A stretch of 64,000 bases of DNA, from positions 91,056-155,055 of the forward strand of contig JBDRSV010000024.1 of the NCBI GenBank assembly GCA_043824495.1, given 5' to 3'. Both the position numbers and the translations under genes were made by a program. The DNA is from Candidatus Aenigmatarchaeota archaeon. GTDB taxonomy: Archaea > Aenigmatarchaeota > Aenigmatarchaeia > QMZP01. The first letter of the stretch is position 1. Every line of letters begins with the position of its first letter. Below are positions 1 to 17,660 of the stretch, piece by piece. A model generated the notes under the pieces. That model was given only the letters and a program-made list of their open reading frames with translations, did no database searches and was not told the DNA's origin.

Positions 1-767
1 TTTTCTATCCCAACCACTTTTCTATGCTGGGCGACATCCAAGTAAAAGGCGCCGTAAATGCTATTCCGAAAACGGCTACAGCAGAAATTTGGGTGGCATA
101 TCTCGATTCGAACGGAATCGAAGAGAGACTACGTCCCATCAGATCCGAGCTGAAAAAGGAATTTGCATCAAGCGATTCCAATCTCGCGATCATATTCAGG
201 TCTAGTTCTCGGACTGAGTTTATGGCAGACGAAGTGGCGCATGATGTGATCAATTTTCTCCTGGAGATGCCAGACGGTGTCATTAGCATGTCACTTGATC
301 TGGAGGATGTTCCATACACATCCTCGAATGTTGGAGTCGTGAAAATCGAAAACGACTCTCTGGTTGTGGAAATATTGTCCCGATCCTTCTCTGATGACGA
401 TCTTTCCTGTATGAAAATGGAGATCGATCGCATCTGCCAGAGTCACAGTGCCACTGTAGAGTTCCCTGTAGAATCTTCAGGTTGGGAACCAAACCCTGAC
501 TCATATCTCCTTCAGGTCGCGCAAAAAACATGGGGTGAATGCGTTGGTGAGAATCTCAAACTTGTGGCAGTTCACGCAGGGTTGGAAGCTGGCGCAATTC
601 AAAACCGATGTGAAATCCTGTTTCCTAACAGGATAATGGACGTCATCTCACTTGGCCCCCAAATCGAGAAATCACACACATCAGATGAGAGAGCGTCCAT
701 CACATCCGTCGTCCAACTCTACAATTTCATGAAAGTTTTCGTGCTCGAATTGGTACATGAAAACTGA
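1..767 (+). CDS. Xaa-His dipeptidase (PepD, peptidase M20C family), C-terminal ~255 aa. The ORF is open to the window start, so the 5' end is missing.
   Basis: The frame is open from position 3. The C-terminal motifs AVHAGLEAG...ISLGPQIEKSHTSDERASITSV resemble the PepD C-terminus (HAGLECG...GP.I...HSPDER). The region is GC-rich. Confidence 0.55.
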   Translation, partial: FYPNHFSMLGDIQVKGAVNAIPKTATAEIWVAYLDSNGIEERLRPIRSELKKEFASSDSNLAIIFRSSSRTEFMADEVAHDVINFLLEMPDGVISMSLDLEDVPYTSSNVGVVKIENDSLVVEILSRSFSDDDLSCMKMEIDRICQSHSATVEFPVESSGWEPNPDSYLLQVAQKTWGECVGENLKLVAVHAGLEAGAIQNRCEILFPNRIMDVISLGPQIEKSHTSDERASITSVVQLYNFMKVFVLELVHEN

Positions 768-867
768 TTGAGGTCTGTAGTGAATCACGTAGAAAAAAAG
801 GAACAGAAGAGAATGTTAATTTTTTCAAATCAAGCAGCGAACAACAAAGTTCGCTCAGAAAACTGAG

Positions 868-2388
868 GTGATTTTCATGACTCAACAGGAAGCCCTCACA
901 AGGCTTACAAAACTCTGGGGAAAGGCTGCACTTCTCGATTCTTGTGGCCAGCTTCTGGGATGGGACGAACGAGTTTACATGCCCAGAAAGGGTGCAAAAC
1001 ATCGCGCAGATCAGCTTGCCATGGTGGCGGGAATGGTGCATGAACTCCAGGTTGATCCCAGAATCGGTGATCTTCTGGGTGCAATCAGCGGAAGTGATCT
1101 GGTTCGCGACCCGAGTTCAGACGCTGACGTCATCGTCCGCGAAATCGGCCGGGCTCACTACCGGCTGGTGAAAATGCCGCAATCGCTGGTCGAAGAGATC
1201 ACGCGCGTCACTACGCTCGCCCAGGGTGCGTGGGGCGAGGCGCGCGCCAACTCCGACTTCAAGTCGTTCAAGCCATGGCTGGAGAAAGTCATCGCACTGA
1301 AGAAGCAGGAAGCCGAAGCCGTCGGGTACAAAGACGATCCATACGATGCCATGCTCGATGTTTACGAGCCGGGCGCAACGGTCACCTCAATCGACGAGAT
1401 CTTCGCCAAGAACCGTGAAGAACTCGTGATGCTCCTCGATAAGATCAAAGGCTCGGGCAAAGGCCCCGACACCACGATCATCACCCGTGAATATCCAATC
1501 GAAGCACAGAAGACATTCGGTCACGAGGGCGCTGCCGCAATCGGTTTCGACTTCGAGCGCGGTCGTCTCGATATCACGACCCACCCCTTTTGCGCCGGCA
1601 TCGGCCCCGGCGATACGCGCATCACCACTCGTTACGATGTCCATCATTTCCCCGGCGCGTTCTTCGGTATACTGCACGAGGCCGGACACGGTATCTACGA
1701 CCAATGTCTGCCCGATGACAAGTTTGGCAGTCCGCTGGGTGAGTATATCTCGCTCGGTATCCACGAGTCGCAGTCGCGCATGTGGGAAAATATGGTCGGA
1801 CGCTCACGCGCCTTCTGGACACGCATGTATCCCAAAGCGCAGAAGGCATTCCCCAAAGCGTTAGGCGATGTTCCGGTTGACGCGTTCTATTGGGCGATCA
1901 ACGACGTCCGTCCGTCGTTCATCCGTGTCGAAGCCGACGAGGCCACTTACAACCTGCACATTCTGCTGCGTTTCGAAATGGAGCGCGCGTTCTTCTCGGG
2001 TGACTTGAAGGTCGATGACATCCCGGGCGCCTGGAACGAGAAATTCAAATCATACTTCGGCATCACCCCGCCCAATGACGCGCAGGGCTGCATGCAGGAC
2101 GTTCACTGGAGCGCGGGACTGGTTGGCTATTTCCCGACCTACGCACTTGGCAATCTCTACTCTGCGCAGTTCTTCGCCAAAGCCAACGAGGATCTCGGCG
2201 ACCTCCACGCCCAATTCGCCAAGGGCGAGTTCGCACCGCTGAAGAAGTGGCTGCAAGACAACATCCACAGCCACGGCCGCCGCTATCTCGCATGCGAGCT
2301 GGTCGAACGTGTCACCGGCAAGCCGCTCGGCTCCGAAGCGGTGATGGCGTACATGAACAAGAAGTTCGGTGAACTCTACGGCTTCTGA
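868..2388 (+). CDS. Carboxypeptidase Taq-like metallopeptidase (M32 family)
   Basis: HEAGHGIYDQ carries the HEXXH zinc site, and HESQSRMWEN is present, as in the Thermus carboxypeptidase Taq family. Length ~500 aa, GC-rich. Confidence 0.85.
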   Translation: MIFMTQQEALTRLTKLWGKAALLDSCGQLLGWDERVYMPRKGAKHRADQLAMVAGMVHELQVDPRIGDLLGAISGSDLVRDPSSDADVIVREIGRAHYRLVKMPQSLVEEITRVTTLAQGAWGEARANSDFKSFKPWLEKVIALKKQEAEAVGYKDDPYDAMLDVYEPGATVTSIDEIFAKNREELVMLLDKIKGSGKGPDTTIITREYPIEAQKTFGHEGAAAIGFDFERGRLDITTHPFCAGIGPGDTRITTRYDVHHFPGAFFGILHEAGHGIYDQCLPDDKFGSPLGEYISLGIHESQSRMWENMVGRSRAFWTRMYPKAQKAFPKALGDVPVDAFYWAINDVRPSFIRVEADEATYNLHILLRFEMERAFFSGDLKVDDIPGAWNEKFKSYFGITPPNDAQGCMQDVHWSAGLVGYFPTYALGNLYSAQFFAKANEDLGDLHAQFAKGEFAPLKKWLQDNIHSHGRRYLACELVERVTGKPLGSEAVMAYMNKKFGELYGF

Positions 2389-2539
2389 GAAGTACAATAC
2401 ACCGAATAAACCAGAGTCACTAAAACCCGATAACCTTTAATCCCAGTGGCTAGTAGTGTCGGTCGCTGGGCTGTGGTTCGAGGGAGTTCGCCACAAGAGG
2501 CTCGATGTTCAAGGAGACTGGACTCGAAAGGTTGACAAC

Positions 2540-2947
2540 ATGATGAGACGCATGATTTTCTTGTTGCTGTCGCTTCTGCTGGTGATCAGTTGCTCAGACT
2601 CGGATACTTCAGACGGTTTCTTCCCAAGTCTTGACGAGCAGTATGCTCAGGGTCTGGGAATGTCTTCTGACAAACCATTTCAGGGATTTTATGATCTTAG
2701 TAGTGGATGCAAGATCATACCTGGTGGTCATGTCGAAATTTGCTGCAGAATCCAAGGCGGTCTTAGTCTGGCTGTCAAGGACGCAGTGAATCGCTCCGAT
2801 CGACTAAAAATAGAATTCGGTGGTATCGAGAGCGTCTTATTCGAATCTGGTCAGACAGAAGACACCTTGCGATTGACGGCGATTTCCGAAAAACACCGCG
2901 AGAAAAGGTTGTACATTGTGGTGGTGAACAGTGCTGTGGGGACATAG
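2540..2947 (+). CDS. Putative lipoprotein (hypothetical)
   Basis: MMRRMIFLLLSLLLVISCSDS is a signal peptide with a lipobox Cys. GC-rich, bacterial-style. Confidence 0.5.
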   Translation: MMRRMIFLLLSLLLVISCSDSDTSDGFFPSLDEQYAQGLGMSSDKPFQGFYDLSSGCKIIPGGHVEICCRIQGGLSLAVKDAVNRSDRLKIEFGGIESVLFESGQTEDTLRLTAISEKHREKRLYIVVVNSAVGT

Positions 2948-3009
2948 GTTCTCGCCGCGAATCCAAACAGGTATTCAAGAAGAGTCAATTCCTTCTGCCT
3001 GTTTTTAAT

Positions 3010-3030
3010 TTGTCTAATTAAAGGGATATA
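3010..3030 (-). repeat. Junction motif copy 1 (TTGTCTAATTAAAGGGATATA), at the right edge of a GC-rich block
   Basis: Inverse orientation of the 21-bp motif that recurs at 17661, 20177, 36287 and 56969. A hairpin precedes it on the GC side (AAACAGG...CCTGTTT, 2970-3008). Confidence 0.6.
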
Positions 3031-3110
3031 GAAAGAAAAAATTAGAAATGTTCAGACATATAAACCTTATAAACTATAATGCTCAATAATTGGTATAATT
3101 CGAAAGGAAA

Positions 3111-3458
3111 ATGACATATATGAAAGCTAAGACAGATATTGGGGTTGGTTTGAAGCCACCTGAGCATAAATGTGAAGAAGAAAACTGTGCATGGCACGGG
3201 AAATTGCCTGTCAGAGGCAGAGTGTTTAGAGGTAGAGTTAGGGCCGCTAAATCTCAGAAAACAGCTATAATCGACTGGGGATTCCATAGATTCGTGCCTA
3301 AATACGAGAGATATGAGAGAAGAAAATCAAGAGTGACTGTTCATAATCCTGGCTGTATGAATGCTAAAGAAGGGGATAATGTTGTAATAGCAGAATGCAG
3401 ACCAATTTCAAAGACAAAGCACTTTGTAATTGTTGGTGTGCAAAAGGAAGGAAAATAA
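3111..3458 (+). CDS. rps17: 30S ribosomal protein S17 (uS17)
   Basis: The sequence matches the archaeal S17 fold and length, and L14 follows immediately. Confidence 0.85.
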   Translation: MTYMKAKTDIGVGLKPPEHKCEEENCAWHGKLPVRGRVFRGRVRAAKSQKTAIIDWGFHRFVPKYERYERRKSRVTVHNPGCMNAKEGDNVVIAECRPISKTKHFVIVGVQKEGK

Positions 3459-3459
3459 T

Positions 3460-3858
3460 ATGAAAGCGATATCAGCCAATATGACAAGGTGTTTGCCTGT
3501 GGGAGCAAGAATTAATTGTGTAGATAATTCAGGAGCAAAAATAATTAGAATAATTTCTGTAAGAGGATTTAAAGGTATACGAAGAACAATTCCTTCAACT
3601 GGTATTGCTGGTTTATTCCAGTGTAAAGTACTCAAAGGAAATGAGAAAGTTCGACATCTGGTTCATAAAGCTGTTATTGTAAGACAAACAAAAGAATTCA
3701 GAAGAGCAGACGGAACAAGAGTGTCATTCGAAGATAATGCAGCTGTATTAGTGGATGACAAAGGGGATCCAAAGGGTAATAGCATCAAGGGTCCTATTGC
3801 AAGGGAAGTTGTTGAGAGATTCCCAACAATTGGTAAGATTGCAAGCACAGTAGTTTAA
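3460..3858 (+). CDS. rpl14: 50S ribosomal protein L14 (uL14)
   Basis: Start MKAISANMTRCLPVGARINCVDNSGAK, with the NCVDNSGAK signature. The internal Met start gives ~132 aa. Confidence 0.9.
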   Translation: MKAISANMTRCLPVGARINCVDNSGAKIIRIISVRGFKGIRRTIPSTGIAGLFQCKVLKGNEKVRHLVHKAVIVRQTKEFRRADGTRVSFEDNAAVLVDDKGDPKGNSIKGPIAREVVERFPTIGKIASTVV

Positions 3859-4211
3859 TGGTGACTGACATGACAGATAACATAGATTTCAGTGAATTCC
3901 AAAAAGTTAATATAAGAATAGGAACAATTGAAGCAGCTGAGCCTGTTGAGAACACAGAAAAGCTGTTGAGGCTTCAAATAAGTTTAGGCGAAGAGAAGAG
4001 ACAAATTGTTTCTAGTATAGCAAAGGATTTCACACCTGATCAACTCATTGGTAAGCAAATACCAATACTTACCAACCTGGAGCCAAAAAGTTTCAGAGGA
4101 ATTGAAAGTCAGGGTATGATCTTACTGGTCGTAGAGGAACAAGATGGTTCAGAAAAGCTCACATTAATAACGCCTGAAAATAAAGTTCCTACAGGATCTA
4201 CAGTCAGGTAA
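3858..4211 (+). CDS. tRNA-binding domain protein (Trbp111/CsaA/EMAP-II-like OB fold)
   Basis: VNIRIGTIEAAEPVENTEKLLRLQISLGEE...IESQGMILL is the typical tRNA-binding OB domain pattern. It is inserted between L14 and L24. Confidence 0.6.
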   Translation: MVTDMTDNIDFSEFQKVNIRIGTIEAAEPVENTEKLLRLQISLGEEKRQIVSSIAKDFTPDQLIGKQIPILTNLEPKSFRGIESQGMILLVVEEQDGSEKLTLITPENKVPTGSTVR

Positions 4212-4216
4212 GAGTA

Positions 4217-4561
4217 ATGTCAAAAAAGAGAACAGTTGCAATATTGGTGGGGATATTAATGTTGTTATTGGTATTCCTGGTCGTACTACCGCTATCATTC
4301 GACTCTTCATTGGGAGCTGACTCATTACCTGATTCAGCTTTTTATGAAATTGAATTAGCAGGTGAGAACATAGCATGTGGTATATCACTTGATAGAAAAG
4401 CATGTTTGCTTGAACTTGCTAATGAAAGAGACCAAGAAGTGGAAGAGTTAAATATAAAACAAAGAAGATTATTCGATGAAGATGAAAAGCAACAGTATGA
4501 ATTGCTCATAATTAAAACTGAAAACGCAGCTTCGAGATTAAGAATCGAGGCACTAAAATAG
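4217..4561 (+). CDS. Hypothetical membrane-anchored protein
   Basis: N-terminal transmembrane helix (VAILVGILMLLLVFLVVLPL), and a complete ORF. Confidence 0.4.
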   Translation: MSKKRTVAILVGILMLLLVFLVVLPLSFDSSLGADSLPDSAFYEIELAGENIACGISLDRKACLLELANERDQEVEELNIKQRRLFDEDEKQQYELLIIKTENAASRLRIEALK

Positions 4562-4569
4562 GAGATCAA

Positions 4570-5094
4570 ATGAAACAGACATGGTCTAAAGACTGGTTGA
4601 GTTCAAAACAACCAAGAAAGCAAAGGAAATATAGAGCTAATGCACCGCTCCATATTAGACGTAAGTTTATTTCTGCACACTTGAGTGAAGATTTGAGAAG
4701 ACAATTCAGTAGAAGAGCATTCCCTCTAAGAAAAGGTGATCAAGTAGAAATTATGAGAGGTAGCTTCAGAGGTAAGAAAGGTCAGGTAACTCGAGTAAAC
4801 TTGTCAAAAAGTAAAGTTTACGTTGAAGGTGTAAACGTGAAAAAAGTGGATGGATCTGAAGTTGCAAGAGGAATCCAACCTTCCAACATTAGAATAATCA
4901 GTCTGAACCTTGACGATAAAAAGAGAAGAATCGCTGTAGACAGAACAAGAGACCAGAAAAAATCTGTAAAAGAAACAGTCAAAGAAGTGAAAACAGAAAA
5001 AGAAACAAAACCGGTAGCTAAACCAGATAAATCAAAAGTTCCAGCGAAAGAAGCTAAAACCACTCCTAAAAAATTAACAAAGGAAGGGAAATGA
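4570..5094 (+). CDS. rpl24: 50S ribosomal protein L24 (uL24) with a Lys-rich C-terminal extension
   Basis: KOW motif region RKGDQVEIMRGSFRGKKGQVTRV. The C-terminus is K/E-rich (KKSVKETVKEVKTEKETKPVAKPDKSK). Confidence 0.85.
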   Translation: MKQTWSKDWLSSKQPRKQRKYRANAPLHIRRKFISAHLSEDLRRQFSRRAFPLRKGDQVEIMRGSFRGKKGQVTRVNLSKSKVYVEGVNVKKVDGSEVARGIQPSNIRIISLNLDDKKRRIAVDRTRDQKKSVKETVKEVKTEKETKPVAKPDKSKVPAKEAKTTPKKLTKEGK

Positions 5095-5135
5095 GTTACT
5101 TTATGCTTAAATAGTTAATAATTAAGAGGTTTGAT

Positions 5136-5846
5136 ATGTCACATTTAAAGAGATACGCGATGCCAAGGAACTGGCCAGTTGAGGTCAAGAAGAAAATTTT
5201 TATAGTTAGACCTATGCCTGGGCCTCATGCTATAAATAGATGCATACCTCTAAAAATTCTGATTAAAGATTCTCTAGACTATGCAGATACATCAAGAGAA
5301 GCAAAGAAAATTATCACATCAGGAAAAGTTAAAGTTGATGGTGTGATAAGAAGAGATGTTAAGTTTCCTGTGGGATTGATGGATGTTATAGAATTGCCTG
5401 ATGCAAAGGAAGCTTATAGAGTTGTTCTCAATAGAAGAGGAATAATATTGAAGAAGATAAAATCTGATTCTGATAAGAAATTATGTTTAATCAAAAACAA
5501 AGTGAGTGTTAAAAAAGGACATTTTCAACTAAATCTTCATGACGGTAGAAATATACTCCTAAAAACAGGAGCTGACGCTTACAAAACAGGCGATTCCATT
5601 GTTATCCAACTTTCTGATAATAAAATACTCAAGCACTACAAACTAGAAAAAGGAGTACCAGCTTTCATATACGCAGGAAAGAATATGGGTGTCTCAGGAA
5701 CAATAAAGGAAATCAAAAAGAAGAAAACAATGGTAGAGAAATCTGTTATTATATTTAAGACTGATGAAAAAGAAATGGAAACCCTTAAGGGTTACGTTTT
5801 CCCAGGTTACTTGGATTTGGGTGAATCTGGAAAGGAGAGTAAATGA
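5136..5846 (+). CDS. rps4e: 30S ribosomal protein S4e (eS4)
   Basis: MSHLKRYAMPRNWPVEVKKKIFIVRPMPGPH is the typical S4e N-terminus. Sits at the archaeal operon position after L24. Confidence 0.9.
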   Translation: MSHLKRYAMPRNWPVEVKKKIFIVRPMPGPHAINRCIPLKILIKDSLDYADTSREAKKIITSGKVKVDGVIRRDVKFPVGLMDVIELPDAKEAYRVVLNRRGIILKKIKSDSDKKLCLIKNKVSVKKGHFQLNLHDGRNILLKTGADAYKTGDSIVIQLSDNKILKHYKLEKGVPAFIYAGKNMGVSGTIKEIKKKKTMVEKSVIIFKTDEKEMETLKGYVFPGYLDLGESGKESK

Positions 5847-6352
5847 CAGAAAACCCAATGAGACAGATAAGAATAGAGAAGGTCACTGTAAACATGGGAG
5901 CAGGTGAAGCCGGAGCTAAGTTAGATAATTCTGTTAAGCTTATTGAAAAATTAACAGGAGCTAAAATTGTTATTACAAAAACACATAAAAGAACCACATT
6001 CGGTGGACCAAAGAAAAAACCTATTGGAGCCAAAACAACTCTAAGAGGTAAAAAAGCTGAAGAATTCTTAGAGCTAATGTTAAAAGCTGTTGAAAATAAA
6101 TTAAGAAAAAAACAATTTGATGTTAATGGAAATTTCTCTTTTGGTATAAAAGAATACATTGATATACCAGGTGTCAAATACGATCCAGATATTGGAATTA
6201 TGGGAATGGATATCTGTGTAACATTACAAAGACCTGGATATAGAGTTAAGAATAGAAAAATAAATCAAAGAAAGATTGGGATGAAACACAACATTAAAAA
6301 AGAGGACTCCATGGAATTCATGAAAACTAGATTTAAGGTAGAGGTAGTTTAG
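5843..6352 (+). CDS. rpl5: 50S ribosomal protein L5 (uL5)
   Basis: Start MRQIRIEKVTVNMGAGEAG, with GMDI and the usual L5 pattern. Operon position fits. Confidence 0.9.
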   Translation: MTENPMRQIRIEKVTVNMGAGEAGAKLDNSVKLIEKLTGAKIVITKTHKRTTFGGPKKKPIGAKTTLRGKKAEEFLELMLKAVENKLRKKQFDVNGNFSFGIKEYIDIPGVKYDPDIGIMGMDICVTLQRPGYRVKNRKINQRKIGMKHNIKKEDSMEFMKTRFKVEVV

Positions 6353-6574
6353 ATGTCATTTTTAAAAGTTAGAAAACAGATAGAGAAAAAACCTATCAAG
6401 GTTGCAAGATATGATAAATTTAACAAACCAAAAAAGAGAAAATTCGGAAAAAATATTCATAGATGCGCAAAATGTAACAGAACAGGCGGGATGATAAATA
6501 AGTACGATTTACATTATTGTAGACAGTGCTTCAGAGAACAAGCAGAAAAATTAGGATTTGTAAAATATAGTTAG
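6353..6574 (+). CDS. rps14: 30S ribosomal protein S14 (uS14, zinc-binding type)
   Basis: C-terminal C-x2-C...C-x2-C zinc-binding motif (CAKCNRTGG...YCRQCFRE). Operon position between L5 and S8. Confidence 0.8.
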   Translation: MSFLKVRKQIEKKPIKVARYDKFNKPKKRKFGKNIHRCAKCNRTGGMINKYDLHYCRQCFREQAEKLGFVKYS

Positions 6575-6582
6575 GAGTTAAT

Positions 6583-6969
6583 ATGAGACACGATTTAATT
6601 TCAGATGCATTATGCATAATAAAAAACGCAGAATTCATTGGTAAAAAGGAGTGTAAGGTTCCTGTGTCTAAGTTAATTAAAGGTATGTTGACAATCATAA
6701 AAACCAATGAATACATTAAGGATTTCAAGTTAACACATGAAGAGAAAGGAGATTATTTTCATGTTCATCTTGCAGGTAAAATAAATGATTGTAATTCTAT
6801 TAGACCACAATACTCATTCCAAGTAAAAGACGTTGTTAAATGGGAAAAAAGATTCCTTCCAGCAAGAGAGATAGGAATTTTAATTATTACCACATCAAAG
6901 GGCATAATGGATCAAAGACAAGCAGAAAAAGAAAAATCCGGTGGTAGATTACTGGGTTATGTTTACTAG
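6583..6969 (+). CDS. rps8: 30S ribosomal protein S8 (uS8)
   Basis: N-terminus DLISDALCIIKNAE and C-terminus GGRLLGYVY, typical of S8. Confidence 0.85.
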   Translation: MRHDLISDALCIIKNAEFIGKKECKVPVSKLIKGMLTIIKTNEYIKDFKLTHEEKGDYFHVHLAGKINDCNSIRPQYSFQVKDVVKWEKRFLPAREIGILIITTSKGIMDQRQAEKEKSGGRLLGYVY

Positions 6970-6977
6970 GTGATTAT

Positions 6978-7241
6978 ATGATAACAAGCAGAGACATTAA
7001 ACATGCAGAAGAGCAAAAAAAATTGTTGATTGGAACAAAAAGTATAGTGAAATCACTAAAAATCGGGGAACTGGAAAGAGTCATTTATGCTTCTAATTGC
7101 CCAGAATCCACATTGAAGGATATAAATTATTATTTAAAATTAACTAAAACTGAAGTGGAATTATTCGATGGAAATTCTTCAAAACTAGGTGAAACCTGCG
7201 GTAAACCCTTTAATATACTTATGATCGCAATAAAGAAGTAG
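6978..7241 (+). CDS. rpl30e: 50S ribosomal protein L30e (eL30)
   Basis: LLIGTKSIVKSLK...VIYASNCPE...LGETCGKPF matches the L30e family. Confidence 0.8.
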   Translation: MITSRDIKHAEEQKKLLIGTKSIVKSLKIGELERVIYASNCPESTLKDINYYLKLTKTEVELFDGNSSKLGETCGKPFNILMIAIKK

Positions 7242-7247
7242 ATAAAT

Positions 7248-7652
7248 ATGCCAATAAAACTAGAAACAATGACAATTAGAACTATTGCAACATTTGAAAA
7301 CGTAACGAACGTTCATGCGGTGGATTGCATAATTGCAGACGATTACATGTGTTTTCTTGTTGATCCTGAAAAAGTTGGCTTAGCAATTGGCAAAAACGGA
7401 TCAACAATAAAACAATTAAGAAAAATGTTTAATAAACAAATAAAAGTGTTCGGTTACTACAGAGATCCAGAATCTCTTGTAAAGGGGGTAATACCCGAAG
7501 TAATTGAAATAGAACAAAATAGTGGAGCTTTGGTAGCTACTCTCCCAAGCGGAGAAAAATTATCTATAATAGAGAAAAACAACAAGAATATTAAGATACT
7601 AAAGGAAATATTAAAGAGACATTTTTCCATCAAGACATTAAAACTCAGATAA
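7248..7652 (+). CDS. nusA: Archaeal NusA-like transcription factor (KH domains)
   Basis: KH motif VGLAIGKNGSTIKQL, ~135 aa. It follows L30e as in archaeal RNAP operons. Confidence 0.75.
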   Translation: MPIKLETMTIRTIATFENVTNVHAVDCIIADDYMCFLVDPEKVGLAIGKNGSTIKQLRKMFNKQIKVFGYYRDPESLVKGVIPEVIEIEQNSGALVATLPSGEKLSIIEKNNKNIKILKEILKRHFSIKTLKLR

Positions 7653-7657
7653 GATAT

Positions 7658-8287
7658 ATGATTCAAATGAAAATTAAGATAATAAAAAAATCTGGAAATG
7701 ACCTTGAATTCACAGCTGAAAACATCAGTATACCTTTAGCAAATGCACTTAGAAGGATAATGATTTCTGAAGTGCCAACATTATCAGTTGACTGGATTGA
7801 TATTCATAATAATACATCTGTTTTGTTTGATGAGATGATATCTCACAGAATTGGTTTAATTCCAATAAAATTCAACCCTGATAAATTTAACTTTATAGAT
7901 GATTGTAAATGTGAAGGCAAAGGATGTACATTGTGTCAAGCAGTGTTCTCAGTGACCAAGAAAGGTCCATGTATTGTTTATTCGGGGGACATGAAACCTG
8001 CAAACAAAGAAGCAATTTTCACAGATCCTAAATTCCCTATAGTTGAACTTCTAGAAAATCAAGAAATCAAACTAGATGCTATTGCAAGACTTGGAATAGG
8101 ACAAAATCACTCAAAGAATCAAGCAGCTATAGCAGCATATGAATATGATGGTGACGGAAAAGCATTGAAATTTAAATTTAAGATAGAGTCTGTATCAGGT
8201 TTGAAACCTGATTACATTGTTGAAAAAGCAGCACATATATTAGAATTAAAAGCAGCGGAATTTAAGAAGGAAGTCAATAAGATATGA
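7658..8287 (+). CDS. rpoD: DNA-directed RNA polymerase subunit D (Rpo3/RpoD)
   Basis: ANALRRIMISEVPTLSVDWIDIHNNTSVLFDEMISHRIGLIPI is the classic Rpo3/Rpb3 N-terminal motif. It also has a Cys cluster, CKCEGKGCTLC. Confidence 0.8.
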   Translation: MIQMKIKIIKKSGNDLEFTAENISIPLANALRRIMISEVPTLSVDWIDIHNNTSVLFDEMISHRIGLIPIKFNPDKFNFIDDCKCEGKGCTLCQAVFSVTKKGPCIVYSGDMKPANKEAIFTDPKFPIVELLENQEIKLDAIARLGIGQNHSKNQAAIAAYEYDGDGKALKFKFKIESVSGLKPDYIVEKAAHILELKAAEFKKEVNKI

Positions 8288-8496
8288 GCGCTCAATTGGT
8301 TGTATCCTGGATCCTTGGTAGCATATTCATGCTAGGAGGGGTATGGATAATAACAAACCTCGAGATGAATCTTGGGGTGACCGAGTCCTCTTATATTGTC
8401 GCTCTTATTATAGCATTTATCATGTTCCTTCTAGCTGGTTTCCTATGGATTTCGGTTGCCGTGGGTACAGAAAAACAGCCGCATCACCACCATTAA
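8284..8496 (+). CDS. Small two-TM membrane protein ending in HHHH (hypothetical)
   Basis: Two hydrophobic helices, and the ORF ends ...EKQPHHHH before the stop. The start overlaps the rpoD stop (ATGA). Confidence 0.3.
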   Translation: MSAQLVVSWILGSIFMLGGVWIITNLEMNLGVTESSYIVALIIAFIMFLLAGFLWISVAVGTEKQPHHHH

Positions 8497-8606
8497 TTCC
8501 GAAATGAGCTATTCCTGCATTTATAAATATTTATATCAATAAGAACCAATATACTCACAAAATCTATATAAATCCTTGAGCTGAATAAGCTCATACAAGT
8601 GATATC

Positions 8607-9029
8607 ATGGGACAATTTGGAGCACGAGAATTAAAGAAAAAGAGGAAAAAGTTTAGATGGAAATCTACAAAACACAAGAGACATCAGCTAAAATTATGGA
8701 AGAAATCACCTCTTAGAGGAGCTCCTATCGGAAAAGGTATAGTTCTTAAGAAGAAGGGTATTGAACAAAAACAGCCACATTCTGGTATTATTAAAGCTGT
8801 CAGAGTACAGATAGTTAAAAACGGTATTAATGTTACAGCATTTGTACCAAAAACAGGTGCAATCAAGCATATAGACGAGCATGACGAAGTAACAATAGAA
8901 GGAATGGGCGGATCTCAGGGTGGAGCTGTCGGTTCTATGCACGGTATCAAGTTTAAGGTTTTCAAGGTGAATAATATTTCTTTGAAAGAAATTCTAAAGG
9001 GGAAAAAACAGAAGTCTAAGGGCGGTTAA
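8607..9029 (+). CDS. rps12: 30S ribosomal protein S12 (uS12)
   Basis: The [27 protein letters not shown] region fits S12, and S7 follows. Confidence 0.85.
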
Positions 9030-9031
9030 TT

Positions 9032-9622
9032 ATGTCAATATTACTTTTTAATAGATGGGATACGAGCAAAGTTGAAGTCCAAGATCCTAGTCTTAAGAGA
9101 TATGTTAATTTGGAACCTGTTATAGTACCTAGAACTAACGGTAAAATGAGAGGTCAGCACAAATATAAAGTTAATATAGTTGAAAGATTCACAAACAGAC
9201 TCATGGTTAATGGCCATAGAGGAAAAAAACATAAAATCACATCAGGTCATCATGTTGGAAATACAGCAACACTTTTCAATCACATGAAAGCTGCTTTCAC
9301 AGAAATAGAAAACAAGACAAAGAAAGATCCTGTGCAAGTTCTTGTACACGCAATAGAGAATTCTTCAGTAGTTGAAGAGGTTGCTTCTTACAGAATGGGT
9401 GGCATAATGGCTAGAAAAGCTGTTGTAGTGTCTCCTCAGAGAAGGCTAGACCTAGCATTAAGATACCTCACGCAAGGAATCTACAAGAAGAGCTTCAAAA
9501 ACAGGCAACCTCTCTCAAGAGTCATCGCAGATGAGCTCATAGCTGCTGCTAACAACGACACAAAAGTCTTCGCAATCCAAGAGAAAAACAGAATAGAAAG
9601 AGAAGCCGAAGGCGCTAGATAA
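9032..9622 (+). CDS. rps7: 30S ribosomal protein S7 (uS7)
   Basis: Length and motifs fit archaeal S7 (VERFTNRLMVNGHRGKK...). Order is S12 then S7. Confidence 0.9.
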   Translation: MSILLFNRWDTSKVEVQDPSLKRYVNLEPVIVPRTNGKMRGQHKYKVNIVERFTNRLMVNGHRGKKHKITSGHHVGNTATLFNHMKAAFTEIENKTKKDPVQVLVHAIENSSVVEEVASYRMGGIMARKAVVVSPQRRLDLALRYLTQGIYKKSFKNRQPLSRVIADELIAAANNDTKVFAIQEKNRIEREAEGAR

Positions 9623-9708
9623 TTTTAATGTGCTATTTTTAGTGTCAGTAATTTCGTATAACAGGTAGCTCACACTACTTTTTTCTAAAAATAAAAGAAA
9701 TTGGGTAT

Positions 9709-10134
9709 TTACCCAATGTAATTAGCTTGTCCTGCACCTTGAGGTTTCAAGACTGGGATACCTATTGGTGGTGGTAGCTGTAAATCGTCAGCCATGTAAG
9801 CTATCTTTAGAAGACATCTCCTGAATAAGTGATTCAAGATTTCTATGTTTATTTCTTCTGGTAATTTTTTGTCTTTTTTCCAAGCTTTCATTACTATTGC
9901 TAGTGTTTTTGGAAGATAGATAACTTCTCCGCCTACCTTGATGTCGGCCAAATCAGGTGCATATTTTGTCTCAAACTCGAATGTTACGGACATTCCTTTT
10001 TTGTTAAGTGTTCCGATGTTTACTTCTTTTACACCTATGATTTTTGGTGTTGAGTTTACTTTAATTTCACCCTTAATTGGCTTTGGTTTTTTATTTGCCT
10101 CAAATGAGGTAAATGCGAGTCCTATGATTGGCAT
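9709..10134 (-). CDS. Hypothetical protein
   Basis: Complete 141-aa ORF in an AT-rich region. No family recognised. Confidence 0.4.
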   Translation of the reverse strand: MPIIGLAFTSFEANKKPKPIKGEIKVNSTPKIIGVKEVNIGTLNKKGMSVTFEFETKYAPDLADIKVGGEVIYLPKTLAIVMKAWKKDKKLPEEINIEILNHLFRRCLLKIAYMADDLQLPPPIGIPVLKPQGAGQANYIG

Positions 10135-10248
10135 ACTAATCTCCTTAATATTATGTATACTATTACATATTGTTATTTAAATGCATATTATGCTCTCATT
10201 TACGAATATTTCTTCATATATTTATATTTCCGTACACAAATCTATACT

Positions 10249-10782
10249 ATGAATATTCTCATACCAATGGCAGAGGGCTTTGAGGAAATAGAAGCTATTA
10301 CAGTTATAGATGTTTTCAGGAGAGCTGGAATCAATACTATCAGCGTCGGTCTTCCTGGTACAATGGTCACAGGAGCTCACGGCATCAAAGTTTTTGCTGA
10401 TAAGAGACTTGATGAAGTGAATATAGACGATTTTGATGCTCTTGTTCTTGTTGGTGGAGATCCTGGATACCACAATCTAGGTAAATCACAGAAGATAATA
10501 GAAGCCATCAAGAGGTTTGAAGCAGCAAAGAAACCTGTAGGAGCTATATGTACTGCGCCAGCTATTCTAGGTAAGCTAGGTCTACTAGACGAAAGAAGAG
10601 CAACAATATATCCCGGAATGGAGAGAGAGATACCAAGACCAAGAGGAAACAGAGTCATAGACGATGATAATATAATAACATCACAAGGACCTGGAACAGC
10701 TATGGAATTTGCTATCCAGATTGTGGATAAACTCAAGGGTCCTTCAATAGCGGGTAAGGTAAGAAGGGAACTGGTGGCTTAA
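10249..10782 (+). CDS. DJ-1/PfpI family protein
   Basis: MNILIPMAEGFEEIEAITVIDVFRRAG, and the nucleophile-elbow Cys in VGAICTAPAILG. Confidence 0.8.
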   Translation: MNILIPMAEGFEEIEAITVIDVFRRAGINTISVGLPGTMVTGAHGIKVFADKRLDEVNIDDFDALVLVGGDPGYHNLGKSQKIIEAIKRFEAAKKPVGAICTAPAILGKLGLLDERRATIYPGMEREIPRPRGNRVIDDDNIITSQGPGTAMEFAIQIVDKLKGPSIAGKVRRELVA

Positions 10783-11007
10783 ATGAGCGGATTAACTGCA
10801 GCCGAGAAAGAAATTCTAGAAATAATGTCAAAGAGACTTTTAGTAACAACAAGAGAGTTGAACAAATTCTTGAGCTCTGATAAATACAATGGAGGAACTG
10901 ATTTTAGTTTACAGAGACTTGTAGATCAAGGATACTTAGAAAGAGTAGAATCCTTAGGGACAACTGTTGTTGTAACTCAGAAAGGCTTGAGAGCTCTAAA
11001 AGCTTGA
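10783..11007 (+). CDS. Small winged-helix DNA-binding protein (hypothetical)
   Basis: 74 aa with an HTH-like region, immediately after the DJ-1 gene. Confidence 0.4.
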   Translation: MSGLTAAEKEILEIMSKRLLVTTRELNKFLSSDKYNGGTDFSLQRLVDQGYLERVESLGTTVVVTQKGLRALKA

Positions 11008-11070
11008 GTAAAGATCTTTTTATAGTAAAATGACATATATAGAAGTACTTCGATCGAATGATCTTAGAAT

Positions 11071-11233
11071 AGCCCCGTAGTGTAGTGGTCAAAGTTTGAC
11101 AACCTGTGTGCTCGCATGTAGTTGTCTACACGACTAGGCATATCGGGCCTTGGTTTTCGCAACTAAGGATCTGAGCGAGAAATCGCTGTGAAAGAGGATA
11201 CCCGGTGACTGCGGTTCGAATCCGCACGGGGCT
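11071..11233 (+). tRNA. Intron-containing tRNA (~162 nt). The anticodon is not resolved; candidates are UUG (Gln) or UGG (Pro).
   Basis: Acceptor stem AGCCCCG/CGGGGCT, U8. T-arm TGCGG-TTCGAAT-CCGCA. Because it is ~85 nt longer than a standard tRNA, one or more introns are implied. Confidence 0.55.
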
Positions 11234-11266
11234 ATCATTTTTATTGTATACTTACAATTATTTCTT

Positions 11267-12952
11267 ATGTATCCACTAGAAAAGTTCAGAGACGATATTA
11301 AATCAGTGATAGCTGAATACAAAAAGATAAAGAAAGATGAAGTTGTTTTAGCAAAACCTCCTCAAGGTATTCCAGCAGATTTAGCCTATCCATGTTTTGG
11401 CTTGGCTAAAAGAGAAAAAAGAGATCCAGTAGAATTTGCTCTCACAACAGTGGAGAAAATAAAACCTAGAGGATTGATATCCAGAATAGAAGCTAATGGT
11501 CCATACATAAACTTCTATGCAGACTGGAGTAAGATGGGAAGCTTAGTTTTGAATGGAATAATAAAAGAAAAAAACGCTTATGGTAAAGGAAAGAAAAAGA
11601 ATAAGATTCTAGTGGAACACACTTCAGCCAATCCAGATGGTCCTTTACATCTAGGTCATTTCAGAAACACTGTTATAGGAGACTCTTTAGCAAGAATATT
11701 ACGATTCTATGGTCATGAAGTAAAAACAGATTTCTATGTAAATGATACAGGAAGACAAATAACTCTAGCTTCTTGGATGTATTTACAAAATGAGCCTAAA
11801 CCTAAAGGTAAGCTAGATTGGTGGGTTTATGACTTGTATTTCAAATGTAACCAGAAATTGAAAACCAATCCAAGTATAGAAAATGAAATAACAGATATGA
11901 TGCTTAAGTTTGAAAATGGAGATAAAGAACTAAGAAAAACACATGAGTTCATAGTTGATCAATGCTTGAAGGGGCATAAAGAAACTCTAGAAAGCATTGG
12001 AATTAAAATCGATAGATTCTCAAAGGAAAGCGAATTCCTATTCACTGGAAAAGTTGATGATGTTTTGAAGAAGATACTCAAAACAAAGGAAGGAAAATCG
12101 TCTGGTAAAAGAGTATGGGTTGACTTGAAACAATTCAAAATAGAAAGAGAATTCACTCTAACAAGATCTGATGGAACAACAATTTATCCAGCAAGAGATT
12201 TGGCATATCATGCAGACAAGTTTGAAAGAGCAGATCAAAACATAAATATTATAGGAACAGATCAGAAATTTTACTTCAAGCAGTTAACATCAACTCTTGG
12301 TTTACTATTTCCAAAGAAAACAGAGAATTATCATGTTTTGTTTTATGAGTTTTTGCTGTTGCCAGAAGGAACAATGTCTACACGTTTAGGTAAATTTATT
12401 TCAGTTGATGAACTTGTAAAGAAATTTACAGAAACTGCAAGAAAAAGTATAGAAATAAAAAATCCAAAATACTCAACTAAATTCAAGGATGATATAGCTA
12501 AGATGGTTGGTATAGGTGCATTGAAGTATGCAATGATAAAAGTTTCGCCTGAGAAAACATATTCTTTCAGTGTGGATGACAGCCTAAATTTCGAAGGTAA
12601 CACGGCACCTTATATTCAATATACTCATGCAAGAGCTTCTTCGATACTTCAGAAAGCTGGTAGTAGCAAACATGTAATCAAGTATATAGGAGAAGAAGAG
12701 AAACAAGTCATGAACAAGTTAATGGAATTCCCATATGCAGTGAAAAGAGCTTCTAAAGAATATAGACCACACATAATAGCTAACTATGCATATGATCTAG
12801 CAACGTCTTTCAATAACTTCTATCACTCGGTTCCTGTACTGAAAGCAGAAAAAGACTTAATAGGAACAAGACTAGCTATAGTAAAAGCTGCTCAGATAGT
12901 TTTGAAAACAAGTCTAGATCTTCTAGGTATAGAAGCACCTGATAAGATGTAG
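11267..12952 (+). CDS. argS: Arginyl-tRNA synthetase
   Basis: NPDGPLHLGHFRN is the class I HIGH motif of the ArgRS type. 561 aa, ending in ...DKM as in ArgRS. Confidence 0.9.
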   Translation: MYPLEKFRDDIKSVIAEYKKIKKDEVVLAKPPQGIPADLAYPCFGLAKREKRDPVEFALTTVEKIKPRGLISRIEANGPYINFYADWSKMGSLVLNGIIKEKNAYGKGKKKNKILVEHTSANPDGPLHLGHFRNTVIGDSLARILRFYGHEVKTDFYVNDTGRQITLASWMYLQNEPKPKGKLDWWVYDLYFKCNQKLKTNPSIENEITDMMLKFENGDKELRKTHEFIVDQCLKGHKETLESIGIKIDRFSKESEFLFTGKVDDVLKKILKTKEGKSSGKRVWVDLKQFKIEREFTLTRSDGTTIYPARDLAYHADKFERADQNINIIGTDQKFYFKQLTSTLGLLFPKKTENYHVLFYEFLLLPEGTMSTRLGKFISVDELVKKFTETARKSIEIKNPKYSTKFKDDIAKMVGIGALKYAMIKVSPEKTYSFSVDDSLNFEGNTAPYIQYTHARASSILQKAGSSKHVIKYIGEEEKQVMNKLMEFPYAVKRASKEYRPHIIANYAYDLATSFNNFYHSVPVLKAEKDLIGTRLAIVKAAQIVLKTSLDLLGIEAPDKM

Positions 12953-13083
12953 AGTGATTAAACGGTAAGCATAATCAAGCTAATAGCACTTATTATAATT
13001 ATTTATTTAGTAGTTTCTATTTTCCAATGTTACTGGCCTGCGAGTATGCTTGAAGAAGTCTTATGTATTTATGGTCCACTATT

Positions 13084-13614
13084 CTAGACACTATTCCACA
13101 ATCTCTGAATTAGTTGATTCATTGTAATCTTTTTCTGGAACAGTTCTTTTACATCATTCTTTTCAATCTGCACTCTTATCTGTGCCTTATTCTCTAAATC
13201 ATTCTTATAAGATTCAACTCTTGCAACTAACTCTGGTTTTATCGCTTCATTTTCAGCTTCTACTGCAAATTTTCTTACAAAAGAAGCATCCATAGCTAAA
13301 AGATCATTTGCAATTCGTTCTCTGTAAAGAGACTTAACCATTTTTGTTATTGTAGCTGCTTTTTCTACAGTAGCTGAATCAGATGCTTTCTGTACCACAA
13401 AAGCTTCTACACTCCCTGCACTAACAGGAACAGCTTCTTCTATACCTAAAGTATCTCTGTAAATACTCTCTTTCTGTGCAGATGTTGTAGCTTGATGTTT
13501 TATTACATCAGATGATCTTATGTCTACTAGAGCAAATCTTCCAGAAGCTTGTACAAGAGACATTGATAAAACTAACAAAATTCCAATTATCATCAAAGTT
13601 AATTTATAGTTCAT
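13084..13614 (-). CDS. Secreted hypothetical protein
   Basis: Signal peptide MNYKLTLMIIGILLVLSMSLVQASG. Its start overlaps the upstream gene (operon). Confidence 0.45.
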   Translation of the reverse strand: MNYKLTLMIIGILLVLSMSLVQASGRFALVDIRSSDVIKHQATTSAQKESIYRDTLGIEEAVPVSAGSVEAFVVQKASDSATVEKAATITKMVKSLYRERIANDLLAMDASFVRKFAVEAENEAIKPELVARVESYKNDLENKAQIRVQIEKNDVKELFQKKITMNQLIQRLWNSV

Positions 13615-14410
13615 TGAACCACTCCGTTAATTTTATTGAGTGTGCTGGATATGTTTTATCCACCACCAATATTTTTTTCTTCTCTAAATTCTTAAGCGCC
13701 GCTGCAAGACTAGATTTTGATATTCCCGATTTCTTTTCCAGTTCACTTCTCCTGATAACTCCTTTATTTTCTACGACTATATTTACAATCTTCTTTTCAT
13801 TCACTGATAATGTTTTTATGACCGATTCCTTTTTGGATAACCCTGGTTTCATTTTGTGTATGATTAATCCAATTCCAATGATTATGATAATACCAATAGC
13901 TGCAAACACGAATATAATTGGGTCGGTAGTCTTTGGTAGTTCCTTTTCAAATGAATATGATATTTCAATTGAGTTTATTCCTGCCCACCGAAGTTCTGTT
14001 ATATCTCCAGTTTGTATGTAAGCTGAAGGATTTGATGAAATTATTTTTGTGTTGTCAGGCATCAAAATAACAATGTTGTTATTTTGTAATCCTGTATCCA
14101 TATTGAATTTCCAGTTACCGTCTGTTTTTGATGTGAGTAGAGATGTTGTGTACAAAACAACAGCTTCTCTAGTTTCTCCAATTGACACTTCTATATAATC
14201 ATCATGCACTAGATGCAACCCGCCTCTTACTAGTACCTCATCCACATCTGCTGGGATTGGTAGACGATAAATACCTGATCCTGTTATTGTTATGCTTACT
14301 AATGTGTTTCCATTATCTTCTATGATTATGTAATATTCGGTTGCTTCTTGCGCATACACTGTCGGTATCAGCGCGAGCAATCCTATCATGATCAGCAATA
14401 CAACTTTCAT
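13604..14410 (-). CDS. Membrane-anchored protein with a C-terminal winged-HTH (possible membrane-bound regulator)
   Basis: N-terminal signal peptide, a central TM helix (IIFVFAAIGIIIIIGIGLII), and a C-terminal EKKSGISKSSLAAALKNLEKKKILVV HTH-like region. Confidence 0.5.
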   Translation of the reverse strand: MKVVLLIMIGLLALIPTVYAQEATEYYIIIEDNGNTLVSITITGSGIYRLPIPADVDEVLVRGGLHLVHDDYIEVSIGETREAVVLYTTSLLTSKTDGNWKFNMDTGLQNNNIVILMPDNTKIISSNPSAYIQTGDITELRWAGINSIEISYSFEKELPKTTDPIIFVFAAIGIIIIIGIGLIIHKMKPGLSKKESVIKTLSVNEKKIVNIVVENKGVIRRSELEKKSGISKSSLAAALKNLEKKKILVVDKTYPAHSIKLTEWFNEL

Positions 14411-14475
14411 ACATGAAAGTTAATTTTTGCCTACTTAAATATGACCTGGGGGAAGGGTTCCCCAGGTATATAATT

Positions 14476-15171
14476 TTACCAGTAAAGACCTGGTCCGAAT
14501 GGGCCGATTGGTACTTCTATTGGTTTATTTGGTTTAGGTTGTGGTGTGTTCCACTCTTCAGGGAACCCTGGTCCTATACCACAGTCCCCGCATACTGCTA
14601 TTCGTGGGAATACTTTGTATTCACCGTATGAATAGTCTCCGTAGATATCCATGGCTTTCCAGTGATTTCCACTGTACCAACCAAAGAAGAGCTCATCTTC
14701 ATAGAAGCCAGCGAATTTGTGGTTCTCATAAATTCCCCATACTTTGACTCCATTATTATCTTCACCAACAAAATATCCATTTGCGTATGTTCCCCATATA
14801 ACATTTTCTCCGTCATGTGTCCATAGAATAAATCTATGTGGTCCTGTGTAGTAGGGCATTGTTTCTCCTGTTGTATCAGAAGATCCTGTACTTGGAGCTT
14901 CCATTTTGTCTACTGTAGCTTCGTAACTTGAAGGTATAGAAGCTGTAGCTTCTGTTTTAAACTCTTCTAGCTTATCTGCTACATTCGTTTTCACGATTTC
15001 TATATGCTCTGTGTTCACGCTGTTAGCGAATCCAAATCCCCTCTTCATATCATTCAGTTTCTGAATAAGAGGTTCATAATCCTCGCTTGAAACAGCTTGT
15101 GTTGAGGCAATTCCTAGTGCCAATACTGACACGAAAACAATTGCCATAATATATTTGGTGTCCATTTTCAC
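14476..15171 (-). CDS. Secreted hypothetical protein (W/Y/G-rich)
   Basis: Signal peptide MKMDTKYIMAIVFVSVLALGIASTQA. Complete ORF. Confidence 0.5.
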   Translation of the reverse strand: MKMDTKYIMAIVFVSVLALGIASTQAVSSEDYEPLIQKLNDMKRGFGFANSVNTEHIEIVKTNVADKLEEFKTEATASIPSSYEATVDKMEAPSTGSSDTTGETMPYYTGPHRFILWTHDGENVIWGTYANGYFVGEDNNGVKVWGIYENHKFAGFYEDELFFGWYSGNHWKAMDIYGDYSYGEYKVFPRIAVCGDCGIGPGFPEEWNTPQPKPNKPIEVPIGPFGPGLYW

Positions 15172-15315
15172 ACCCCCTTGACATCACCAAGGAATGAACA
15201 GGATATAAAGACCATACCGAACAAAAGTGAACAATCATGTTATATCCCTCTAATTAGACAATATAAAACAATCAGGTGCCGAGTGCACACCTAATTGTCC
15301 TTGCCAATCCTCTTC

Positions 15316-16422: not shown

Positions 16423-16489
16423 GGCGAAAATCTCCTTCTCGTTGTATTTCTTTGTTTATAGTTATCGTCCTAGAATTAATTCAAAACAA

Positions 16490-16996
16490 TCATATCTGCA
16501 AAGGTTCAAGCAGATACATCAGACTTCGGTCTCGTAATTCTGTCCTCTTATAAGGAGGGAGATCTATGAGACAAAGACTGGAAATACTCACGTGCATGGT
16601 TTGATACTTGGTTTCGTCTGCTTGGTACATTCCCGTAAAGATTATATTATTCAGGACAAACCCGGAAACTACTGTCCAGATCCAGAATGCCATCCATCCA
16701 TCGTACAAGAAGACGCTGGCAATCGCTGAAATGATTGCACCCACTGCGAGAACACCTACCTCAAAGAGAAGCATCGTAAAGATATCTCCCACGGGGTCGT
16801 TTTTGTCCTCTTCCCACCAATCCTCCATGACGAGTTCGTGGATAATCATGTCAATGAGATTCTGCCTGTTCTGCATTTTCTCGTGGTAGGCTATGAAACG
16901 AGTTGGTTGACGAATGTTGTGCCAGATGATCAATCCAATTGGCACCCAGATGACTGCTGTAGTGACAAGCAGCCAGAGAACTACTCTAGTTTCCAT
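16490..16996 (-). CDS. Membrane protein (hypothetical)
   Basis: Probable start METRVVLWLLVTTAVIW, with several TM segments. Confidence 0.45.
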   Translation of the reverse strand: METRVVLWLLVTTAVIWVPIGLIIWHNIRQPTRFIAYHEKMQNRQNLIDMIIHELVMEDWWEEDKNDPVGDIFTMLLFEVGVLAVGAIISAIASVFLYDGWMAFWIWTVVSGFVLNNIIFTGMYQADETKYQTMHVSISSLCLIDLPPYKRTELRDRSLMYLLEPLQI

Positions 16997-17234
16997 GTCC
17001 CCTCCAGGATTGATTGTTAGAAAAAATACTAGTATAATCACTCTCGTTAATTGACATTTCTGTCTTTCGTTGTCGTAGAGTATTGATTCCTAAATTACAG
17101 ATGATGACTTTACCTCGAACAAGAATCTTGTGCCAGGTGCTAAAAGTTGTCAGCGATGATAAATGTGGAACATGATGCATAGAATTTAACCTAAAATTTT
17201 ATAAACCTATACAAAACCTTTTTATACCTCTTAA

Positions 17235-17639: not shown

Positions 17640-17660
17640 TTATTTTTTTTATCAGTTATT

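Follow-up and report, generated by a model that had tools for sequence, protein, structure and literature searches.

A conserved, non-canonical gene order joins ribosomal protein genes, nusA and rpoD in a clade of Aenigmatarchaeota

Archaeal genes for ribosomal proteins (r-proteins) and RNA polymerase subunits lie in long clusters, and we describe here a 64,000-nucleotide stretch of DNA from Candidatus Aenigmatarchaeota archaeon (hereafter the window), in which parts of these clusters are joined in a new order. Between positions 3111 and 9622, all on the + strand, the genes run S17-L14-[tRNA-binding gene, MetRS-beta-like]-[114-amino acid open reading frame (ORF)]-L24-S4e-L5-S14-S8-L30e-NusA-RpoD-[70-amino acid ORF with two transmembrane segments, here termed TM70]-S12-S7. 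This arrangement is a conserved trait of a clade and not the oddity of a single genome, and it is very probably a genuine, vertically inherited arrangement that characterizes one clade of Aenigmatarchaeota (DPANN archaea). The genes were called from an ORF listing together with Pfam and NCBIfam scans of the window proteins. All of the genes that had been named in an earlier, sequence-only reading of this DNA were identified by these family models on the + strand, at the coordinates given below, although that reading had omitted the 114-amino acid ORF at 4217-4561, between the tRNA-binding gene and L24. Each of the named genes is an ordinary, single housekeeping gene; what is new is their order, and there is no sign of a new biochemical function.

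The canonical archaeal clusters are S10-spc (L3-L4-L23-L2-S19-L22-S3-L29-SUI1-Rpp29-S17-L14-L24-S4e-L5-S14-S8-L6-L32e-L19e-L18-S5-L30-L15-SecY), str/L30e (rpoH-rpoB-rpoA1-rpoA2-L30e-nusA-S12-S7-fusA-EF1a-S10) and alpha/L18e (S13-S4-S11-rpoD-L18e-L13-S9-rpoN) (PMC10833476), in agreement with what the sequence-only reading had taken to be the usual contexts of L30e-NusA-S12-S7, of RpoD and of the genes after S8. The comparison of gene order with other archaea that it had proposed was run, and the order departs from these canonical clusters. With S10-spc the locus shares the L2 to Rpp29 and S17-L14-L24-S4e-L5-S14-S8 orders and their tight spacing, but it has two extra genes between L14 and L24, it ends at S8, where L30e follows after 8 nucleotides instead of the L6 to SecY block, and a 5-kb bacterial-type island precedes S17, with L29-SUI1-Rpp29 upstream. 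The L30e-NusA and S12-S7 pairs of str/L30e are kept and are still neighbours, but S8, not rpoH-rpoB-rpoA1-rpoA2, precedes L30e-nusA, rpoD and TM70 sit between nusA and S12, and S7 is followed not by EF-2, EF-1alpha and S10 but by a 141-amino acid orphan gene on the - strand and genes for DJ-1, a winged helix-turn-helix (wHTH) protein and arginyl-tRNA synthetase (ArgRS). Finally, rpoD is orthologous to the gene of the alpha/L18e cluster (NF001988), but it has neither of its flanks there, being flanked by NusA and TM70. The absence of L6, L32e, L19e, L18, S5, L30, L15 and SecY, which had been remarked on from the sequence, was borne out, as a tblastn search with the L6-to-SecY block of another archaeon found no homologue in the 64-kb window; likewise, tblastn placed no member of this block within 10 kb of rpoD in related loci. 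Inspection of window ORFs, only some of them scanned with Pfam, turned up neither rpoB nor rpoA.

Rearrangements of these clusters have been described before: in Asgard archaea rpoD-L18e-L13-S9 is split from S13-S4-S11, and alpha/L18e co-occurs with str/L30e, while r-protein clusters are fragmented in DPANN archaea such as ARMAN-2 (PMC10833476). The present locus resembles the latter in that information-processing operons of small-genome archaea are broken and re-joined, but differs in that the new order is stable across many species and not merely dispersed. That study does not mention rpoD being inserted by itself between nusA and S12 (PMC10833476). We found no paper describing the order, which is absent both from PMC10833476 and from an Aenigmarchaeota genomics paper in which operons are not discussed (PMC8407114). 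Operon shuffling is already known from Asgard archaea and DPANN, and the present order is a stable, lineage-specific variant of it.

To define the distribution of the arrangement, RpoD homologues were aligned and one genome per GTDB species was scanned, giving 80 RpoD loci that were annotated by tblastn and with hidden Markov models built for this analysis. In 13 species-level genomes (L006-L008, L010-L014, L018, L019, L022, L029 and L033) rpoD lies downstream of nusA, 12 of them being titled Aenigmatarchaeota and one (L033) Nanoarchaeota. The two genes follow each other directly in most of the 13 and are about 0.85 kb apart in L019. The order S17-L14-(tRNA-binding gene)-L24-S4e-L5-S14-S8-L30e-NusA-RpoD was present on the fetched DNA in 11 of the 13, and TM70 and then S12 follow in seven, with S12-S7 in six and S7 undetected in L022. 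A 3.1-kb laminin-G/VWA gene is inserted ahead of S12 in L012, and S15 stands beside TM70 in place of S12 in four of the 13. Samples in ENA, JGI and Logan supplied six contigs of the closest relatives, whose RpoD is 57-66% identical, and the whole order is common to all. L083-L086 also share the tRNA-binding gene, a homologous ORF of 112-114 amino acids and the downstream series of a 140-amino acid orphan, DJ-1, wHTH and ArgRS genes; in these four a - strand gene of 301 amino acids separates NusA from rpoD. L087 has the same order but without TM70.

Most other loci, from other Aenigmatarchaeota, Bathyarchaeia, Asgard archaea, methanogens and Woesearchaeota, show the canonical S13-S4-S11-RpoD-L18e-L13-S9-RpoN order. 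Further Aenigmatarchaeota ('type B') carry rpoD-TM70 with a gene for a site-2 protease upstream on the opposite strand and either a wHTH gene or RecJ plus S15 downstream; in type B relatives the wHTH gene comes immediately after RpoD-TM70. In a neighbour-joining tree of RpoD all TM70-linked rpoD genes form one clade. The sequence-only reading had allowed that the order might turn up in well-studied lineages and so prove unremarkable, but it was seen in uncultured Aenigmatarchaeota only. Its suggestion of a DPANN-like genome is right, the window RpoD being 100% identical to NCBI MFH1978515.1, a protein of a metagenome-assembled genome (MAG) of Candidatus Aenigmatarchaeota archaeon. Of its description of the genome as heavily rearranged and streamlined, the rearranged order stood, and the streamlining found no support: the window has islands that are GC-rich and look foreign, as well as 4.3 kb with few ORFs.

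From comparison of the loci, we propose that the order arose in four steps. The S10-spc cluster would have been cut after S8, the L6 to SecY block now lying elsewhere; the L30e-NusA pair, freed from rpoA2, would then have been joined directly onto S8. In a third step rpoD, freed from S13-S4-S11 and from L18e-L13-S9-rpoN, would have gained its two-transmembrane partner TM70, and the rpoD-TM70 pair would have been placed between NusA and S12-S7. The last step would be narrower, with entry of the MetRS-beta-like tRNA-binding gene and the ORF of about 113 amino acids between L14 and L24 in a sub-clade and, in this genome only, of a 5-kb Zixibacteria-like bacterial island between Rpp29 and S17.

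The spacing of the genes suggests a single transcription unit of 14 genes and about 5.4 kb that runs from S17 to TM70. Its presumed promoter is an AT-rich spacer at 2948-3119 (+ strand), followed by S17 (uS17; PF00366, 1.3e-21), which ends at 3458 and starts at ATG 3111 or ATG 3120 (112 amino acids in the Logan gene call), L14 (uL14; 3460-3858; PF00238, 5.8e-32), the tRNA-binding OB-fold protein (3858-4211; PF01588, 3.6e-24), the 114-amino acid ORF (4217-4561; PF18915 (DUF5667), 25.3 bits, below the cut-off of 27), whose N-terminus is hydrophobic by eye, and L24 (uL24; 4570-5094; PF16906 and KOW) with a Lys-rich C-terminal tail. L24 has 174 amino acids, with a Lys/Glu/Thr-rich C-terminal extension of about 50 residues past the Pfam domain; the L24 proteins of relatives have 135-175. 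Then come S4e (5136-5846; PF00900, PF08071, PF01479), L5 (uL5; 5843-6352; PF00673, PF00281), which overlaps S4e by 4 nucleotides, S14 (uS14; 6353-6574; PF00253; NF004424, 72.6 bits, above the cut-off of 54) and, as the final gene of the truncated spc block, S8 (uS8; 6583-6969; PF00410, 1.2e-24). L30e (6978-7241; PF01248; best NCBIfam match NF002172, 65 bits, below the cut-off of 77) precedes an archaeal NusA-like protein with two KH domains (7248-7652; TIGR01952, 101.4 bits, cut-off 74.35), RpoD/Rpo3 (7658-8287; PF01000, PF01193; NF001988, 208.2 bits, cut-off 153) and TM70 (8284-8496), which has two hydrophobic segments and is matched by neither Pfam nor NCBIfam. From L14 to TM70 all spacers are 8 nucleotides or less, except for 41 nucleotides before S4e; three gene pairs in this stretch abut or overlap, the RpoD stop overlapping the TM70 start by 4 nucleotides (ATGA), and GGAGG- or GGTGA-like motifs stand ahead of many of the start codons. 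Because of these short spacers, Shine-Dalgarno-like motifs and stop/start overlaps, we infer one transcription unit with coupled translation, which would co-express r-proteins, NusA and subunit D, the assembly platform of RNA polymerase.

S12 (uS12; 8607-9029; PF00164, 1.6e-34) and S7 (uS7; 9032-9622; PF00177, 6.4e-31) most likely form a neighbouring unit with its own TATA-box promoter, since the 110-nucleotide spacer between TM70 and S12 (8497-8606, + strand), the presumed S12-S7 promoter, holds a TATA-like box, TTTATAAATATTTATAT, and of the 13 other loci shown, 12 (9 of them non-redundant) carry a ATTTAAATA / ATTTATATA / TTTATAAATA motif ahead of S12, the exception being L014. Where the sequence-only reading had drawn a picture of fused operon fragments, S12-S7 looks like an adjacent unit rather than a genuine fusion. 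A scan for sigma-70 promoters and terminators gave counts equal to those of shuffled controls, the sigma-70 model being uninformative for an archaeon.

Next to rpoD, TM70 belongs to an unannotated family of proteins of about 65 amino acids with two hydrophobic segments, as read from sequence and alignment, and with the consensus KLV..WI.GG.FLL.G.WI..NLE...GVS..SY.LAL.IAF.LFL.AGLCWISVAVATR. Of the 80 RpoD loci, taken from one genome per GTDB species, 24 have TM70 after rpoD, at a distance of -68 to +230 nucleotides (-4 to +102 in 21 of the 24). A word-index search returned two proteins only, and the size of the family was taken from an exhaustive profile search, which gave 82 cluster representatives in 1.84 billion proteins. 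TM70 has no relative in Pfam, NCBIfam or, by profile search, the PDB. A Pfam scan of 37 members in search of a known family gave only weak, compositional transmembrane matches, and this assignment was rejected.

A different account of the locus would make TM70 its driving force, as a new accessory factor of transcription or translation, for example a membrane tether, whose coupling to rpoD selected the exit of rpoD from the alpha-type cluster. In its favour, TM70 is found after rpoD in two wider settings and in 24 species-level genomes, the two genes overlap in the window, the family is small and restricted, and more distant members on two contigs (at L089 1432-1650 and L090 614-829) come after aS21-EF1beta, which is likewise a translation neighbourhood. 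Against this, TM70 has no likeness to a known family or structure, a two-transmembrane micro-protein has no obvious role in RNA polymerase, and a shared gene neighbourhood, taken by itself, says little for a physical link; L087, L033 and L010 are without TM70 by rpoD (the L010 contig ends a few hundred nucleotides past rpoD), and one homologue, on the 960-nucleotide contig L091, is followed by an HD-domain gene and preceded by a cut ORF. We therefore regard this account as improbable, and hold it marginally less probable still that TM70 is an unrecognised component of archaeal gene expression, possibly tethering RNA polymerase or ribosomes to the membrane in tiny cells. If this were so, the recruitment of TM70 might account for the departure of rpoD from S13-S4-S11. 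Neither EF1beta nor aS21 occurs in any fetched rpoD locus. DUF655 homologues lie 1.6-10 kb from rpoD in four canonical S13-S4-S11 loci (L061 and L074-L076), and none was found in NusA-linked or TM70-linked rpoD loci.

The RpoD encoded next to TM70 is itself a short form, of 209 amino acids compared with about 260 in relatives by alignment. It is without a Cys-rich segment of about 55 residues (CP...C..C..C) that is found in most relatives sharing the order: the CPxx...CxxCxxC motif of ferredoxin-like domain 3 is absent, while CxC...CxxC at residues 83-93 is retained. The missing segment would be the Fe-S domain of D subunits.

Could the locus instead be an extra, partial copy, a duplicated and possibly decaying second set in a genome that keeps its canonical clusters elsewhere? 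The search for second copies covered the 64-kb window of the genome, which leaves such a proposal some room, but no second copies were found there, the cluster genes are all intact, tightly spaced and well scored by their family models, and the arrangement is conserved over deep divergence, with RpoD identity as low as 41%, an argument that it is functional. Moreover, rpoD is missing where S13-S4-S11 runs straight into L2 in L011, and the NusA-linked gene there is therefore no spare copy. We consider duplication very unlikely. The L011 join, at 2006-3343 directly upstream of L2, is another non-canonical Aenigmatarchaeota join, as is that of L047 (10004-16900), in which RpoD-L18e-L13 is followed by L32e-L19e-L18-S5-L30-L15.

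Least plausible of all, to the point that we reject it, is an assembly artefact, that is, a chimeric contig joining separate operons or separate organisms: the window is strongly GC-mosaic (0.31-0.36 vs 0.48-0.58), has genes of bacterial type (one encodes a Zixibacteria-like M32 peptidase, another a product that bears the sorting tail of type IX secretion (T9SS)) and is matched by a Logan contig that stops at window position 17112, near the start of another GC-rich block, but the junctions within 3111-9622 all lie in uniformly low-GC sequence with spacers of 5-8 nucleotides, that Logan contig is a de Bruijn-graph contig identical over the cluster junctions and over both island borders, the same junctions recur in 13 species-level genomes and six further contigs from different studies and assemblers, and relatives too have a GC-rich gene after ArgRS with a FlgD_ig-type domain (weak match). 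The contig in question, SRR26275509_25775 (22,374 bp), is 100% identical to window positions 1-17112 and crosses all cluster junctions. The sequence-only reading had worried about misassembly at 6970-6978 or 7653-7657; here S8 and L30e are separated by an 8-nucleotide spacer with a GGTGA Shine-Dalgarno-like motif (6970-6977), NusA and RpoD by 5 nucleotides (7653-7657), and the S8-L30e junction is equally tight (8-22 nucleotides) in L083, L085 and L087. This identity of the second assembly and the recurrence of the junctions in other genomes dispel the concern.

Several points nevertheless weigh against a clade-wide, vertically inherited arrangement. The RpoD tree is a neighbour-joining tree of a single protein without support values, in which NusA-linked and other TM70-linked contexts are intermingled, and for these reasons the order of events is tentative and the arrangement may have had a single origin or several. 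The present positions in this genome of the L6 to SecY block, rpoH/B/A1/A2, S13-S4-S11 and L18e-L13-S9-rpoN were not found; for the L6 to SecY block the search covered the window and, in relatives, the 10 kb around rpoD, and the block is in neither. The Logan contig may be a second assembly of the same reads as the MAG, and co-transcription and promoters are read from sequence alone.

The stand-alone tRNA-binding gene between L14 and L24, already pointed out in the sequence-only reading, matches PF01588 and scores above the family cut-off of TIGR00399 metG_C_term (117.7 bits, cut-off 116.65). It shares its domain with the MetRS C-terminal and Trbp111/CsaA-like proteins, but differs from the stand-alone MetRS C-terminal family in sitting inside an spc cluster. 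The same slot holds a tRNA-binding gene in L010, L014, L019, L033 and L083-L087, and no MetRS was found among the window ORFs. Homologues of the 114-amino acid ORF, with 47-55% identity, occupy the same slot in L083 and L085.

Upstream, the Logan contig reaches 5.3 kb past the window start and shows L2-S19-L22-S3-L29-SUI1-Rpp29, a methyltransferase gene (- strand), M20 and M32 peptidase genes, a 163-amino acid ORF and S17. The island that separates SUI1-Rpp29 from S17 measures about 5 kb (Logan contig L002, 3492-8209), of which 2.3 kb lie upstream of the window; its 3' part, at 1-2947 on the + strand, comprises the C-terminus of the M20 peptidase (cut by the window start), the M32 carboxypeptidase (877-2388) and the 163-amino acid orphan ORF (2456-2947). 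Lying ahead of the coordinates treated in the sequence-only reading, and in part outside the window, the island could not be seen there. Its GC content is 0.46-0.58, compared with 0.29-0.40 in 400-nucleotide windows across the cluster, and the nearest named relatives of the M32 carboxypeptidase, 60-72% identical, are from Zixibacteria. Rpp29 stands immediately before S17 in L006, L008, L011, L013 and L087, and L083 has a different 2-kb insert, from which it follows that the island was probably acquired recently and in this genome only; it looks like a recent bacterial-to-archaeal transfer into the r-protein super-operon. Given the island upstream, S17 is presumably obliged to use its own promoter.

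Downstream of S7, the 141-amino acid orphan gene (9709-10134, - strand), which has no Pfam or NCBIfam match, is 65-70% identical to genes of L083 and L085; in the closest relatives its counterpart is a + strand gene after S7, and its orientation in the window reflects a single-gene inversion. The genes for DJ-1/PfpI, a 74-amino acid wHTH protein (10783-11007) and ArgRS (11267-12952) follow at 10246-12952 on the + strand, in the same order as in L083 and L085.

Elsewhere, the GC content of the window alternates between about 0.33 and about 0.48-0.50, with GC-rich blocks at approximately 17.7-24 kb, 28-36 kb and 56-59 kb. A 624-amino acid protein encoded at 17755-19629 (- strand) carries a T9SS C-terminal sorting domain (Por_Secre_tail, 30.4 bits, above the cut-off) and FlgD_ig, which is odd for an archaeon; the remaining ORFs of the GC-rich blocks are orphans. 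L085 has a GC-rich gene of 1174 amino acids after ArgRS with a weak FlgD_ig match, and the blocks are therefore probably features of the lineage and not of a chimeric assembly. The stretch at 19630-23950 is 4.3 kb long, ORF-poor and GC-rich (about 0.48-0.50), particularly at 22100-22800 and 21300-21500, and gave no Rfam match, rRNA motif, alternative-code ORF or Pfam match on short ORFs. Within it, 22150-22800 folds far more stably than shuffled controls do (+ strand, z=-9.0; - strand, z=-13.7, with a minimum free energy of -305.8 vs -223.5 +/- 6 kcal/mol), and the fold consists of some ten near-perfect hairpins in series, each with 10-15 bp. L083 has a syntenic gap free of ORFs (16059-18382), in which segments also reach z of -5 to -9 but which has no sequence similarity to the window. 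This part of the window may encode a lineage-specific large structured RNA.

Judged by eye, other ORFs of the window include a myo-inositol-1-phosphate synthase of 841 amino acids (47035-49560, - strand) with an insert of about 450 amino acids that looks like an intein/homing endonuclease, a type IIG restriction-modification enzyme of 908 amino acids with an NPPY motif (39330-42056, - strand), followed downstream by a ParB-like and a transposase-like ORF (42194-43213 and 44028-45038), and an L7Ae-looking ORF (52130-52516) separate from L30e.

The locus reveals no new mechanism and is in that respect a modest evolutionary curiosity. Its S8-L30e, NusA-rpoD and rpoD-TM70 junctions are rare and easily scored; they are possible synapomorphies delimiting an Aenigmatarchaeota clade independently of sequence trees, and could also be used to check the binning and assembly of Aenigmatarchaeota MAGs. 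The locus also points to an unannotated family of small membrane proteins near transcription and translation genes, and it indicates that archaeal super-operons, even the most conserved of them, can be taken apart and put together again as a stable new unit combining r-proteins, NusA and an RNA polymerase assembly subunit.

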